Positions 6,040 through 10,207 are shown, numbered from the stretch's first letter. The stretch is 64,000 nt of DNA from Gammaproteobacteria bacterium (GCA_003354005.1 PIWD01000002.1:594-64593); one strand, 5' to 3'. The notes: generated from the sequence alone by a model not told the origin. Numbers and translations are program-made.

Positions 6040-6554
6040 GCACTTACAAGAGAGAACCATACGTTGAAATAACACTTTCAACCTCCCTTAAACTGGAAAA
6101 CCTGACTTGGCATCGAAAAATAGAGCAATGGGGCAAGCACCTGCGCCATTCACCACATATTACCTGCCTACCCCCACAAAAACACCCCATTATCAGCCTA
6201 AAAATCATAGACACACCAGAAGCTATCACTCTGAATCAACAATACCGCAACAAAGACTACGCCAGCAATGTCCTAGCCTTTCCTATGTATCCTAGTCTAA
6301 GAATTCATCCACTGTTTTGTGGAATAGAACCACATTTATTCATACTCGGGGACATTGCCATCTGCTGGCCTAAAGTACAACAAGAAGCCAAAACAATGGG
6401 CATTAGTGAAGAAGCCCACTTTGCGCATTTATTCATACACGCTATCCTGCATTTACTAGGTTATGACCATAAAACAAAAGAAAACGCTGATGAAATGGAA
6501 TCGATTGAAACAAAACTACTAGTGGAGCTGGGCTACATTGACCCCTACAGCTAA
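6036..6554 (+). CDS. ybeY: Endoribonuclease YbeY (rRNA maturation factor)
   Basis: Zinc-binding HxxxHxxGYxH motif ([11 protein letters not shown]) and the conserved NVLAFP segment. Overlaps the miaB stop by 4 nt (ATGA). Confidence 0.85.
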
Positions 6555-6652
6555 CTATATCAATACAGAAATCCCCCACATTTCACAATTTATGCTATAC
6601 TATATACCATACATTGGCGTTGGTCGATTGTTTTATTAGTTGAGGAGTTGAA

Positions 6653-7261
6653 ATGCCAGTAGTTACGATAATAACTTTAAAAGGGGAGGCTTTTTATATA
6701 GATAATCCCATAGATACATATGACTCGCTTCTTAATACACATCCGTTTTCTAATTTTCCAGATTATCACCTTATCTCACATAATGAAACTAATTCTAGCT
6801 TAACAATTATTAATGACAAAAATCATAAGATTGATGCTAGTGATAATATCAAATACTACTTTGCACATGGGATAGATAAGGTACGTACGTACTTAAAATC
6901 TCAAGTATATAAAAAAAAGACAGCACATGAAGATGAGTATCATTTCAGTAGTTTCAATACTGACAGTTCAATTAGTGATATTAGTACTGAACCAGGTAAT
7001 CAGCAGCCGAGCTACAAAATAATACTTGCAAGAATATCTGCTGCAGGTGCAAGAATAAAATCTTACCTATCTAGTCTCTGGTCTTGGATCAGAGGAAAAG
7101 TCGGCAATCTTGGTATAGGTAGTAGTGTGATGCAGCCTGATCCTGCTAATTTTAATGAATCTAGCAAGTTGCTAAAAGTATCTAGTACTGAATCCAGTAA
7201 TAAAAACAAGGAAAGTACAAAGAACATTGATGGTAATAATCCTAAGATGCCAATATACTGA
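6653..7261 (+). CDS. Hypothetical Ser/Asn-rich protein, paralog A1 of 7727-8368
   Basis: 202 aa. It shares about 30% identity in blocks with the 7727 ORF (YYFAHGID..YLKSQ / ILARISAAGARI). It is flanked by leader and trailer sequence that is near-identical to the flanks of its paralog. Confidence 0.55.
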   Translation: MPVVTIITLKGEAFYIDNPIDTYDSLLNTHPFSNFPDYHLISHNETNSSLTIINDKNHKIDASDNIKYYFAHGIDKVRTYLKSQVYKKKTAHEDEYHFSSFNTDSSISDISTEPGNQQPSYKIILARISAAGARIKSYLSSLWSWIRGKVGNLGIGSSVMQPDPANFNESSKLLKVSSTESSNKNKESTKNIDGNNPKMPIY

Positions 7262-7329
7262 AGATAAAGCCAAAAATATGCTACTTTCAAGTGGTGTAAT
7301 ACTCTTCTCTAACTAATCACACCTCAGCT

Positions 7330-7560
7330 TTACAGAAAAACGCGACAATCTACAATAATCTTGCTAAAAGTTACCATGCCTTGGGTCAGTCTGAACAAGC
7401 AATCCGCATGTATAAAAAAGCACTGTGTCAAAAGGCCGATTATGCTGTAGCACATTTTACTTAGACGTGGGACAGTATCAATTTTCCCTGAAATATACGC
7501 TGTTGATTTATCAAAAGCAGCCAACTGTTGAAAATCATTTTCAGTTGGGCTTAGTGTATA
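7330..7560 (+). pseudogene. Degraded remnants of a second copy of the TPR-methyltransferase gene. Two fragments are retained: 7330-7458 matches 8702-8830, and 7459-7552 matches 9252-9362.
   Basis: Direct nucleotide matches to internal segments of the intact gene at 8474-10207. The reading frame is broken by two deletions (about 265 bp and about 430 bp) and an in-frame stop. Confidence 0.75.
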
Positions 7561-7574
7561 TGACGATGAAATGT

Positions 7575-7630
7575 AACCGCTTGAAACAAAGCTACTAATG
7601 GAACTGGGCTACATTGACCCCTACAGCTAA
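7575..7630 (+). repeat. Duplicated copy of the 3' end of ybeY (matches 6486-6554, including the ...ELGYIDPYS* codons). It marks the tandem-duplication junction.
   Basis: CTACTAATGGAACTGGGCTACATTGACCCCTACAGCTAACTATATCAATACAG is near-identical to 6509-6570. Confidence 0.8.
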
Positions 7631-7726
7631 CTATATCAATACAGAAATGCCCACATTTCACAATTTGTACTATAATATATACCATAATTGACGTTGGTCG
7701 ATTATTTTATTAGTTGGGAGTCTGAA

Positions 7727-8368
7727 ATGGAGCCAGTTAGAGTTACGGTAATAGGTTCTTCTGGGATAGCTTATTCTAAAAAAACAAATGCAGAGACATA
7801 TGGGGACTTTATTACTACTTCTCCGTTTAATAGGTTGCCATATTCACTTATCTTACTTCCTGCTAAAGATCCTAATAAGACAATAATTATTATGAACCCA
7901 ATTAGTAAGATTAATAATACTAGTGGTACGTACTACTTTGCATCTAATGAAGATGCTGTACTGAATTACTTAAGATCTCAAAAAAGATCTAAGGCAGATT
8001 TCAACAATACTACTGGTGATGAGAGCGAATTAAGTAATCAGCATCCGACCCACGGAATGTTGGCAAGAATATTTGCAGGTGCAAGAATATTTACAGGTGT
8101 ACTAACAGCTTTACGTGCAAGAATAGCAGGTATTATCCCATCTAGTTTTCGGTCTTTGATCACAGGCAAAGGCAAGGGCAGCACTGGCGCAGATAGTGGT
8201 GTAGAACTGACTAGGGTTAGTAACCCTACTGATAAATCCAATAAATTTATTGGAAATGGATACAACAACCTTACAACAAAAATACCTTATAGTCCTAAAC
8301 CCAATAGTGACCTCGATAAAAATACGGATGTCTATCATCATGATTCCCAGAATACCCCTAAACCCTAA
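7727..8368 (+). CDS. Hypothetical Ser/Asn-rich protein, paralog A2
   Basis: An ATG at 7727 corresponds positionally to the ATG of paralog A1 (both follow TTAGTTGrGAGt..GAAATG). The listed ORF start at 7688 is a TTG with no equivalent in copy 1. Confidence 0.55.
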   Translation: MEPVRVTVIGSSGIAYSKKTNAETYGDFITTSPFNRLPYSLILLPAKDPNKTIIIMNPISKINNTSGTYYFASNEDAVLNYLRSQKRSKADFNNTTGDESELSNQHPTHGMLARIFAGARIFTGVLTALRARIAGIIPSSFRSLITGKGKGSTGADSGVELTRVSNPTDKSNKFIGNGYNNLTTKIPYSPKPNSDLDKNTDVYHHDSQNTPKP

Positions 8369-8473
8369 CATACCGAAGATACAGCCAAAAATATGCTACT
8401 TTCAAGTGGTGTAATACTCTTCTCTAACTAATCGCCCCTCTGTCAATTGAATTGTTTGTAGCTCAGCTGTACA

Positions 8474-10207
8474 ATGTGTGATATCATGGTGGACATGACT
8501 ATGACATCATCAAAGGATACGTTATTCAAAGAAGCTCTTAGGCAACACCGATTAAATGAATATGTCGGAGCTGAGCGTTGCTATCGTAAATTGCTGGAGG
8601 ATGATCGCATCAATGGAGGCTTGTGGCACTTGCTGGCAATTTTATATGCACAGCAAAGGCGTTATCAAGAAGCGATTCCCTTGTTTGAAAGTGCCTTGGC
8701 TTTACAGAAAAACGCGACAATCTACAATAATCTTGCTAAAAGTTACCATGCCTTGGGTCAGTCTGAACAAGCGATCCGCATGTATAAAAAAGCACTGTGT
8801 CAAAAGGCCGATTATGCTGTAGCACATTGTGGTTTAGCTGATGTTTACCTTAAGAATGCGCAGTATAAAAAGGCATCCCAACATTATCAAAAAGCCATCA
8901 GTATACGTCGTGGCTATGGGGATGCTTATTATGGCATGGCCTTGGTTGCATTGAAGGAACAGAATTTACAATCAGCTATGGCTTATTTACAAGAAACCCT
9001 GGCATTACGTGCAAACTACGGACCAGCGCATACACAGCTTGCGCAGCTTTATTTTCAAGAAGGCCGTTATGAAAAGGCTGCAAGGCACTATCAAGAACGC
9101 TTGTCTTCTGAACCTCAGCATGCTATCAGCCTATTGGGATTGGGGGCGACATTTATTAAGCAAGGGAAGCTTGAATCAGGTATTGAGCAGCTTAAAGAAT
9201 CGATACAGGTTGACCCACAGTTGGTAGAAGCCTATCAAAATTTAGCCACTGTTTACTTAGATATGGGACAGTATCAATTTTCCCTGAAATATACGCTGTT
9301 GATTTATCAAAAACAGCCAACAGTTGAAAACCGTTTTCAGTTGGGCTTAGTTTATATGATGATGGAACGACACCGCGAAGCGATTGAAAACTTTCAAGCT
9401 ATATTGCTCGAAGATTCACAACATTTCAATGCCCATATGAATCTTGGCACAGTGTATCTTAAACTAAGGAAATATCCTAAAGCTATCAAGCATTACAAGC
9501 AAGCACTGCGTTTAAGACCCACCGATCAACAAATTGCCTATTTATTGCAGGCTCTAGAACAAAAATCAGAAAAAACATGTCCTGAACGTGCCCCTCTCAT
9601 TTATGTAAAAAACTTATTTGATCAATACGCACCTTACTTTGATCAACATTTGAATCAATACCTGCATTACGACGTGCCACAACAGCTAGAGAAATTGGTT
9701 GAACAGGATGTTATGCCCAAAATCACATCTGATCACATCAGTATACTTGATCTAGGGTGTGGTACGGGGCTATGTGGGGAACGCTTAGTAAAATTTTCTA
9801 ATAACTTAATGGGCATTGATATTTCAGAAAGAATGATTGATATTGCAAAGAAAAAAAAGATATATCATCAGCTAGTTAGTGACGATATCTTAAGTTTTAC
9901 AACAGAAAAATCTGATTGGGATTTGTTGATTGCAGGTGATACACTTCCTTACTTCGGAAACTTAATGCATATCTTTAAGTTAGCTTCACAACTAACGCAT
10001 TCAAAAGGTTTTTTTGCCTTCACAATTGAAAAAGCAGGCAAGTCTCCATACCAACTACAACAAACCGCGCGCTACGCACACCATCACTCATATATTGAAA
10101 CATTGGCTAACGATCACAAATGGTCAATCCTTTGCTATCAAAGCATTGTCTCACGCTACCATCACAATAGCCCTATCAATGGTTCCCTTTATTTATTACA
10201 ACGTTAA
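8474..10207 (+). CDS. TPR-repeat protein fused to a class I SAM-dependent methyltransferase domain
   Basis: Multiple 34-residue TPR-like repeats sit in the N-terminal ~370 aa (..AILYAQQRRYQEAIPLFESALAL..). Methyltransferase motif I (ILDLGCGTGLCGERL) sits in the C-terminal third. The exact start is uncertain (8474 to 8498). Confidence 0.7.
   Translation: MCDIMVDMTMTSSKDTLFKEALRQHRLNEYVGAERCYRKLLEDDRINGGLWHLLAILYAQQRRYQEAIPLFESALALQKNATIYNNLAKSYHALGQSEQAIRMYKKALCQKADYAVAHCGLADVYLKNAQYKKASQHYQKAISIRRGYGDAYYGMALVALKEQNLQSAMAYLQETLALRANYGPAHTQLAQLYFQEGRYEKAARHYQERLSSEPQHAISLLGLGATFIKQGKLESGIEQLKESIQVDPQLVEAYQNLATVYLDMGQYQFSLKYTLLIYQKQPTVENRFQLGLVYMMMERHREAIENFQAILLEDSQHFNAHMNLGTVYLKLRKYPKAIKHYKQALRLRPTDQQIAYLLQALEQKSEKTCPERAPLIYVKNLFDQYAPYFDQHLNQYLHYDVPQQLEKLVEQDVMPKITSDHISILDLGCGTGLCGERLVKFSNNLMGIDISERMIDIAKKKKIYHQLVSDDILSFTTEKSDWDLLIAGDTLPYFGNLMHIFKLASQLTHSKGFFAFTIEKAGKSPYQLQQTARYAHHHSYIETLANDHKWSILCYQSIVSRYHHNSPINGSLYLLQR

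Follow-up and report, generated by a model that had tools for sequence, protein, structure and literature searches.

Tandem segmental duplications that arise by microhomology-mediated (RecA-independent) recombination are known in the chromosomes of Salmonella and E. coli, where they are usually unstable and near-identical. Conserved flanks or leaders around a hypervariable mature part under diversifying selection are known in the conotoxin genes of cone snails and in the specificity regions of colicins and their immunity proteins. Here we describe a tandem duplication enclosing two paralogous orphan open reading frames (ORFs), A and B, in a contig from a gammaproteobacterium (GCA_003354005.1, PIWD01000002.1:594-64593). 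The window analysed comprises 64,000 nucleotides (nt) of ordinary chromosomal DNA (40% GC), and positions are counted from its first letter. An earlier note on this DNA had proposed that a duplicated block retained near-identical flanks around strongly diverged ORFs, through either diversifying selection or cassette exchange. Our analysis favours tandem duplication of an orphan gene followed by intense diversifying selection on A and B, an account to which we give a probability of roughly 0.6. The evidence at the locus consists of two sequences, A and B, from a single genome, and the changes between them are not polarisable.

A self-comparison, suggested in the earlier note as a check, recovered the repeat structure claimed there: a block running from the 3' end of ybeY into the 5' ~890 nt of a TPR-methyltransferase gene is duplicated in tandem. 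Copy 1 spans 6489-7564 and copy 2 spans 7565-9364, in direct, head-to-tail orientation and collinear save for two deletions in copy 1. The duplicated unit is ~1.8 kb long and ancestrally comprised the last 66 nt of ybeY, a leader of ~98 nt, an ORF, a trailer of ~64 nt, the promoter region of the TPR-methyltransferase gene and the first ~890 nt of that gene. The repeats pair 6489-7325 with 7565-8440, 7322-7456 with 8694-8828 (97.8% identity) and 7435/7451-7580 with 9230/9247-9376 (86-89%), all far above chance (blastn E 1e-38 to 1e-84).

All features of the unit lie on the + strand. In copy 1, the 3' end of the functional ybeY gene (6489-6554, within a YbeY Pfam match at 6036-6554) forms the left edge and is the parent of 7565-7630. 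Leader 1 (6555-6652) follows, with a promoter-like site TTCACA-17-TACCAT (6582-6610) and the ribosome-binding site (RBS) GAGGAG ahead of ORF A (6653-7261, 202 amino acids). Trailer 1 (7262-7325) contains a small hairpin and no recognisable terminator, and is 95% identical to 8377-8440. Two pseudogene fragments of the TPR-methyltransferase gene complete the copy, at 7322-7456 and at 7451-7564 (the latter matching 9247-9360). In copy 2, a non-functional ybeY 3' remnant (7565-7630) precedes leader 2 (7631-7726; the same promoter-like site at 7657-7685, Shine-Dalgarno sequence GGGAG), ORF B (7727-8368, 213 amino acids), whose ATG at 7727 aligns with the start codon of A, and trailer 2 (8377-8440, assigned by segment comparison). 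Beyond these lies the intact gene for a TPR-repeat S-adenosylmethionine methyltransferase (8474-10207; Pfam TPR and Methyltransf), which supplies the right part of the unit. The segments missing from copy 1 correspond to 8441-8693 and ~8829-9246 of copy 2, in agreement with the claim that the copy-1 TPR part had decayed through two deletions. The first deletion took the promoter-like TTGAAT-17-TACAAT site (8447-8475 in copy 2) together with the TPR gene start; the second lies between two TPR repeats and is joined at GTTTAC(C/T)TTA.

A single novel junction, at which distal TPR sequence is joined to proximal ybeY sequence, was located by three-way comparison with both parents. It falls at 7565-7569, within a 5-nt microhomology (TGATG) common to TPR-gene positions 9360-9364 and ybeY positions 6488-6492, or 8 nt with one mismatch. 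The sequences joined are those named in the earlier note, which had placed the junction ~12 nt further left, at 7552/7553. Because TGATG is common to the junction and both parents, the duplication bears the signature of illegitimate, microhomology-mediated recombination. The A/B locus thus resembles the Salmonella and E. coli duplications in its head-to-tail copies, its one novel distal-proximal junction, its 5-nt microhomology and the decay by deletion of its redundant truncated gene. Unlike in those duplications, the copies persist, and the enclosed genes stand at 32-34% protein identity while the rest of the unit stands at 88-98%. Two of the three ybeY-remnant changes beside the junction equal the TPR sequence at the same offset (ACCGC), and the junction may reflect a more complex template switch.

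It is scarcely credible that the tandem arrangement is an assembly artefact merging two strain variants. The sequence comes from one assembly, apparently as a draft contig of 65,996 nt from a lineage otherwise known only from metagenomes; however, a strain bubble would not create the novel TPR-to-ybeY microhomology junction, nor would it create two internal deletions or a ybeY remnant bearing a nonsense change.

The duplicated segments outside the ORFs were then compared with one another. The ybeY remnant is identical at 60 of 66 nt (90.9%; Jukes-Cantor (JC) distance 0.097), one of its six changes being the nonsense mutation. The leaders are 88.5% identical (6555-6652 versus 7631-7726; about 90% by blastn; JC 0.124), matching the ~88% given previously, and the trailers are near-identical as stated but at 61/64 (95.3%; JC 0.048) lie slightly under the 97% claimed. 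TPR fragment 1 is 98.5% identical (JC 0.015; 97.8% over 7322-7456 in the self-comparison), and fragment 2 is 92.6% identical over 7457-7564 (8 mismatches in 108 nt; JC 0.078), or 89% over 7451-7580 in the repeat search. Pooled, these ybeY, leader, trailer and TPR segments carry 30 mismatches in 465 nt (6.5%; JC 0.067). Replacement and silent changes are intermixed in the remnants, which are non-functional and therefore serve as a local neutral clock of ~0.07 substitutions per site. The two remnants on either side of the junction descend from non-contiguous parents and show similar divergence (JC 0.078 and 0.097). High identity reaches ~28 nt into the 5' end of the ORF and resumes ~10 nt before the stop codon, whereas the earlier note had homology switching within a few nt of the start and stop codons.

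Between these boundaries, the two ORFs have diverged far more. A and B are homologous (BLASTP E 9e-11). As proteins they are 32-34% identical along their whole length and 41.7% identical within the first 150 residues; the ORFs show 59.6% nucleotide identity over aligned columns. In a BLOSUM62 pairwise alignment of A residues 2-150 (132 aligned codons), on which the codon-by-codon results are based, mismatches occupy 146 of 396 nt (36.9%; JC 0.51), against 6.5% in the flanks (Fisher p 2e-29), and ORF divergence is ~7.6 times that of the adjacent remnants. Mismatch is equal at the three codon positions (0.356, 0.394 and 0.356), and 13 in-frame indel events fall within the first 150 residues. The uneven divergence described in the earlier note, with near-identical flanks around diverged ORFs, is therefore confirmed by the segment identities.

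The collinear nucleotide blocks shared by A and B all lie in the same reading frame, and the probability of a 202-codon ORF staying open under neutral change this large is 0.001-0.013. This speaks for A and B as real genes, both open and in frame. That one or both should be decaying pseudogenes or non-genes, diverging through relaxed constraint after duplication, is extremely improbable. A gene-wide ratio of replacement to silent divergence (dN/dS, omega) of ~1 would fit such decay, as would the lack of homologues and of a confident fold, but neutral decay is excluded, since it could not outpace the neighbouring neutral DNA 7.6-fold. Furthermore, both ORFs exceed 200 open codons in DNA of 33-37% GC, and the scaffold residues, RBS and promoter-like site are conserved.

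The age of the ORFs can be read from codons that specify the same amino acid in both. Such codons number 55 of the 132, and 49 of them (89%) are identical in DNA, whereas random same-amino-acid pairs drawn from A and B, which give the expectation at saturation, share a codon 44% of the time (binomial P 3e-12). Codon preference cannot explain this identity, since 12 of the identical codons are rare and G/C-ending (ACG, GGG, CCG twice, TAC three times, ATC twice, CAG, TTC and AAG) in a region where GC content at third codon positions (GC3) is 0.25. Silent differences were found at 6 of the 55 conserved codons versus 8 of 90 in the flank remnants (Fisher p 0.77). The silent sites of the ORFs at conserved codons are as young as the flanks, and the ORFs are accordingly of the same age as the flanks.

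One-ratio estimates (NG86 and GY94) had first suggested otherwise, giving A versus B a dS of 0.5-1.1, a dN of 0.7-0.86 and omega ~1, compared with a flank-remnant dS of 0.096. Older ORFs with homogenised flanks were consequently our initial working hypothesis, which was dropped after the codon-identity, mixture-model and runs tests. The mixture was a pairwise model of two codon classes sharing one silent rate, and it beats the one-ratio model with a doubled log-likelihood (lnL) difference (2dlnL) of 29.7. When omega0 is limited to at most 1 and omega1 left free, the fit gives dS 0.21 and assigns 56% of codons an omega of 0.83 and the other 44% an omega of 23.5. Fixing omega1 at 1 as the null costs 8.06 lnL units (2dlnL 16.1, p 6e-5) and forces dS to 0.86, a value at odds with the conserved codons. 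Over the supported range of dS, omega1 falls from 50 at 0.10, as in the flanks, through 25 at 0.20 to 6 at 0.50; a dS of 1.0 fits worse by 7.2 lnL units. A and B call for a sizeable fraction of codons whose omega lies well above 1, and the age of the ORFs is compatible with that of the flanks. The comparison of dN/dS between ORFs and flanks, as proposed in the earlier note, is misleading when made gene-wide and wrongly points to old paralogs. Strong diversifying selection, one of the two explanations offered there, is supported by the divergence of 36.9% versus 6.5%, by the young silent sites and by the two-class test. The counter-case considered there, of old paralogs with homogenised flanks, agrees with a gene-wide omega of ~1 but not with the young silent sites of conserved codons.

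We consider it unlikely that A and B are old paralogs or alleles, whether their flanks were kept young by gene conversion or cassette or minimal-mobile-element exchange brought a divergent allele in between conserved flanks. The one-ratio ORF dS is consistent with such an origin, as are the heterogeneity of the flanks, with at least one conversion-like event, and the atypical composition of A and B (33% and 37% GC versus 40% in the window; GC3 0.25-0.27), whose GC at first and third codon positions lies far under housekeeping-gene values. However, old paralogs would be DNA-identical at ~44-65% of conserved codons rather than 89%, rare codons included, and omega at or below 1 needs a dS of at least 0.86, a value rejected by 7-8 lnL units. 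The youth of the silent sites in conserved codons excludes an older ORF age, and the similar divergence of the junction-side remnants is better fitted by one duplication date than by independent conversions. As to exchange, the databases searched hold no third family member that could have acted as donor, although they do hold the other five proteins checked from the contig. Moreover, conserved and variable codons form 62 runs where 65.2 are expected, i.e. they are randomly interleaved without recombination blocks. Since this interleaving is at the scale of single codons, block-wise recombination, conversion and cassette exchange are excluded as the source of the divergence.

Cassette-type variation or exchange is exemplified by pilE/pilS and the minimal mobile elements of Neisseria, msp2 of Anaplasma and vlp/vsp of Mycoplasma. 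The A/B locus shares with pilE/pilS, msp2 and vlp/vsp the conserved flanks around variable coding DNA and the tandem copies. It differs from them in that A and B are both complete, each with a promoter-like site and an RBS (there is no silent donor), in that variation is interleaved by codon rather than block-wise, and in that recombinase target sites, inverted repeats and further copies are lacking. The cassette alternative of the earlier note is thus not supported, given the completeness of both genes, the interleaved codons and the want of a third copy. A mobile cassette was likewise rejected: in the self-comparison, leader and trailer formed no inverted repeat, and neither had a further copy in the window. 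Terminal inverted repeats are also lacking at A/B, as is a recombinase next to them, the nearest integrase being 5 kb off. That ORF, a phage integrase (tyrosine recombinase) at 560-1798 (+), lies ~5 kb upstream, and no link to the duplication was seen.

A mutational origin of the divergence was also weighed, in which a targeted diversifier or frequent multi-nucleotide mutations would randomise codons while purifying selection keeps the scaffold. The locus does resemble diversity-generating retroelements (DGRs) in having unchanged and randomised positions interleaved in a scaffolded protein. Unlike in DGRs, variation extends along the entire ORF, in-frame indels of a sort that DGRs do not produce are numerous, and there is no adenine specificity (mismatch fractions of 0.43 for A, 0.53 for C, 0.54 for G and 0.43 for T). 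No third (template) copy was found in the window, and no reverse-transcriptase domain among the 46 window ORFs scanned against Pfam. These 46 are all ORFs of at least 120 amino acids except pyrE, ndk, rlmN, the 3392-4696 transporter, 46739-47179(-), 52924-53505, 56996-57553 and 63347-63976. A and B were rejected as DGR targets on these grounds.

A mutational mechanism other than a DGR is, in our estimation, distinctly unlikely. It would account for the enrichment of silent changes in codons whose amino acid has changed, for a marginally better fit when variable codons are given their own synonymous rate, for the equal mismatch across the three codon positions and for the adjacent or periodic mismatches that occur in the flanks too. 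The 77-78 codons outside the conserved 55 differ at a mean of 1.8 of 3 positions, against 2.2 for random pairs. Untargeted hypermutation of the whole ORF is excluded because it would raise silent divergence at conserved codons: ~20 of 55 would be expected to differ, and the 6 seen are at the flank level. To our knowledge, no bacterial mechanism targets single codons over a whole ORF. The enriched silent changes and the equal mismatch at three positions do leave room for a codon-randomising process, and it is conceivable, if highly doubtful, that an unknown mechanism of this kind randomises selected codons of a scaffolded protein with neighbours and flanks untouched. If true, an intracellular bacterium would have a novel system of targeted protein diversification.

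Several observations weigh against diversifying selection as the explanation, or against the precision of the clock on which it rests. A separate synonymous rate for the variable codons improves the fit (2dlnL 4.4, p 0.036), and silent third-position changes are 3-5 times commoner in amino-acid-changed codons (7/36 versus 2/48, p 0.034; 3/7 versus 3/23, p 0.12); this excess could stem from many-step replacement paths, or from multi-nucleotide or codon-targeted mutation. An omega above 20 across nearly half a protein is extreme. Flank divergence is uneven, at 5/195 (2.6%) in the trailer and fragment 1 versus 25/270 (9.3%) in the rest (p 0.004), and because of this heterogeneity at least one conversion-like event appears to have touched the clock. 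Flank mismatches are also partly clustered, some being adjacent (7466-7467) and others spaced by 3 nt (6498/6501/6504 versus 7574/7577/7580). Furthermore, the comparison is of one pair from a single genome; the surface exposure of the variable residues is an assumption, AlphaFold having given no usable model for A or B (mean pLDDT 37.5 and 38.0); and no dot/icm gene occurs among the window ORFs scanned.

Both proteins are rich in Ser, Asn, Thr and Lys, confirming by composition the Ser/Asn richness remarked on before. The N-terminal ~95 residues, where conserved positions are mostly Gly, Pro, aromatic or aliphatic, look like a scaffold. A central helix follows, in which A has two ARI motifs and B has three. 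The C-terminal tails are polar (Ser/Asn/Lys/Thr/Glu-rich) and essentially unalignable to each other. The G-A-R-I residues are encoded by a short DNA sequence, GGTGCAAGAATA, that recurs in frame, with two occurrences in A and three in B (7035-7057, 8067-8089 and 8103-8125). The 11-residue insertion of B, which has one more such repeat than A, has the look of a repeat that expanded locally. The earlier note conjectured a secreted or surface protein; a Sec-type N-terminus and a transmembrane segment are absent from both A and B (highest 19-residue hydropathy 0.79 and 1.48). In the flanks, there was no Rfam match and no terminator-like site, and fold z-scores were insignificant (-0.8 to +0.2); a regulatory RNA or terminator was therefore dropped from consideration.

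With conotoxin and colicin/immunity families the locus shares a near-identical non-coding or leader part, a replacement rate above the silent rate in the coding part, and a scaffold amid hypervariable residues. It is unlike them in that A and B have neither sequence nor domains in common with these families and are a two-member bacterial pair known from one pairwise comparison, without a signal peptide and with no toxin or immunity partner gene nearby.

The orphan status of the two proteins was assessed at several levels. A and B match nothing in Pfam, NCBIfam, PHROGs, PADLOC or PDB sequences, and searches covering ~15 billion proteins yielded no homologue. In a search of 5.8 billion clusters, B finds only itself. 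A combined A+B profile, searched against 1.84 billion representatives, recovered A, B and two further matches, which were rejected as tandem-repeat artefacts. A, B, the TPR-methyltransferase, YbeY and MiaB are each the sole member of their own 90%-identity cluster, and all five are encoded on a single NCBI contig. A phage or defence origin of A and B was rejected, there being no PHROG or PADLOC match and a negative viral contig scan.

The gene order in the window is MFS transporter, miaB, ybeY, the A/B duplication, TPR-methyltransferase, pyrE, ndk and rlmN. The best matches of MiaB (68-72%) are to metagenome-assembled genomes of Legionellales and Coxiellaceae, Legionella species and Coxiella endosymbionts, and on this sequence evidence the organism belongs to a deep, sparsely sampled Legionellales lineage. 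The nearest relative found is a metagenome contig, L081 (MiaB 77%, TPR-methyltransferase 54%), with the order MFS-miaB-ybeY-TPR-methyltransferase-pyrE, in which ~35 nt separate ybeY from the TPR gene and no A/B gene lies between. The A/B gene was thus either inserted in this lineage or lost in that of L081; gain is the simpler reading, since no homologue was found anywhere searched. Searches with the TPR-methyltransferase and MiaB proteins found nothing closer than L081. A MiaB scan of genome contigs gave a best match of 70%, with the TPR-methyltransferase adjoining ybeY in 0 of 80 loci, and two metagenome DNA scans with 24-25-mers from leader and trailer gave no match.

Some features of the neighbourhood are recorded here in their own right. 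In the window (6036-6039) as in L081 (5107-5114), miaB overlaps ybeY and phoH does not intervene; at most of the 80 other gammaproteobacterial loci, ~1.1 kb lies between the end of miaB and the start of ybeY. The MFS transporter found upstream of miaB is represented twice in L081, by copies or fragments at 1-513 (-) and 2467-3754 (+), the latter appearing split in two reading frames. In the window, the first ATG of the TPR-methyltransferase gene (8474) overlaps the gene's own -10-like hexamer. The true start is probably 8495 or 8501 (M8 or M10), with which the alignment to the L081 homologue, beginning at residue 20, is consistent. An alternate chaperone-usher (CS1-type) pilus usher with TcfC and CooC_C domains is encoded at 50441-52987 (+), within 49711-54247, and is flanked by small ORFs without a Pfam match (49711-50436 and 53672-54247).

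Typical candidates for effectors are polar-tailed orphan proteins with low GC and no signal sequence. The Legionellales acquired the Dot/Icm system in their last common ancestor, and all known members of the order grow inside eukaryotic cells (PMC8896642). A and B resemble Dot/Icm (type IVB) effectors in their Legionellales-type genome, orphan status, low GC, absence of a Sec signal, polar Ser/Asn/Lys/Glu-rich tails and local-duplication paralogy. They differ in lacking eukaryote-like domains, and no secretion genes are present in the window, so that the likeness comes from context alone; it is speculative that they might be Dot/Icm-translocated effectors. Six large ORFs of 234-659 amino acids have no Pfam match at 1e-5, at 13310-14659(-), 19013-20533(+), 28044-28748(-), 35254-37233(-), 46461-47450(+) and 54276-55835(-). 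Lying amid housekeeping genes, these may be additional lineage-specific, possibly effector-like, genes.

In the history that we propose, a lineage-specific orphan gene with its own promoter-like leader would have sat between ybeY and the TPR-methyltransferase gene. Illegitimate recombination at a 5-nt microhomology then made a tandem copy of a ~1.8-kb unit, after which the spare TPR copy lost its promoter, start and an internal piece, leaving the ybeY and TPR remnants as a neutral clock. Since then, both ORFs have kept the core residues of the scaffold unchanged, even at silent sites, while the remaining ~45-55% of codons have changed over and over, at ~7 times neutral speed, and at least 13 in-frame indels have accumulated. 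The most likely cause is intense diversifying (positive) selection on residues assumed to be exposed, in a protein facing a co-evolving partner, and we infer that selection rather than a targeted mutator lies behind the rate excess. The two diverged versions would have been retained side by side, with expression predicted from near-identical promoters.

Adaptive divergence of tandem duplicates is known as a process; what is new here is a protein family without relatives together with an extreme divergence that is internally calibrated. The duplicated pseudogene fragments give the locus its own neutral clock, which would make it an unusually clean bacterial case of post-duplication divergence faster than neutral. 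It also carries a lesson of method, in that gene-wide dN/dS is wrong here and the young age of the genes is recovered only by separating conserved from variable codons. For the organism, the pattern marks A and B as likely players in an arms race with a host, a competitor or a phage, in an unsampled lineage of the Legionellales.

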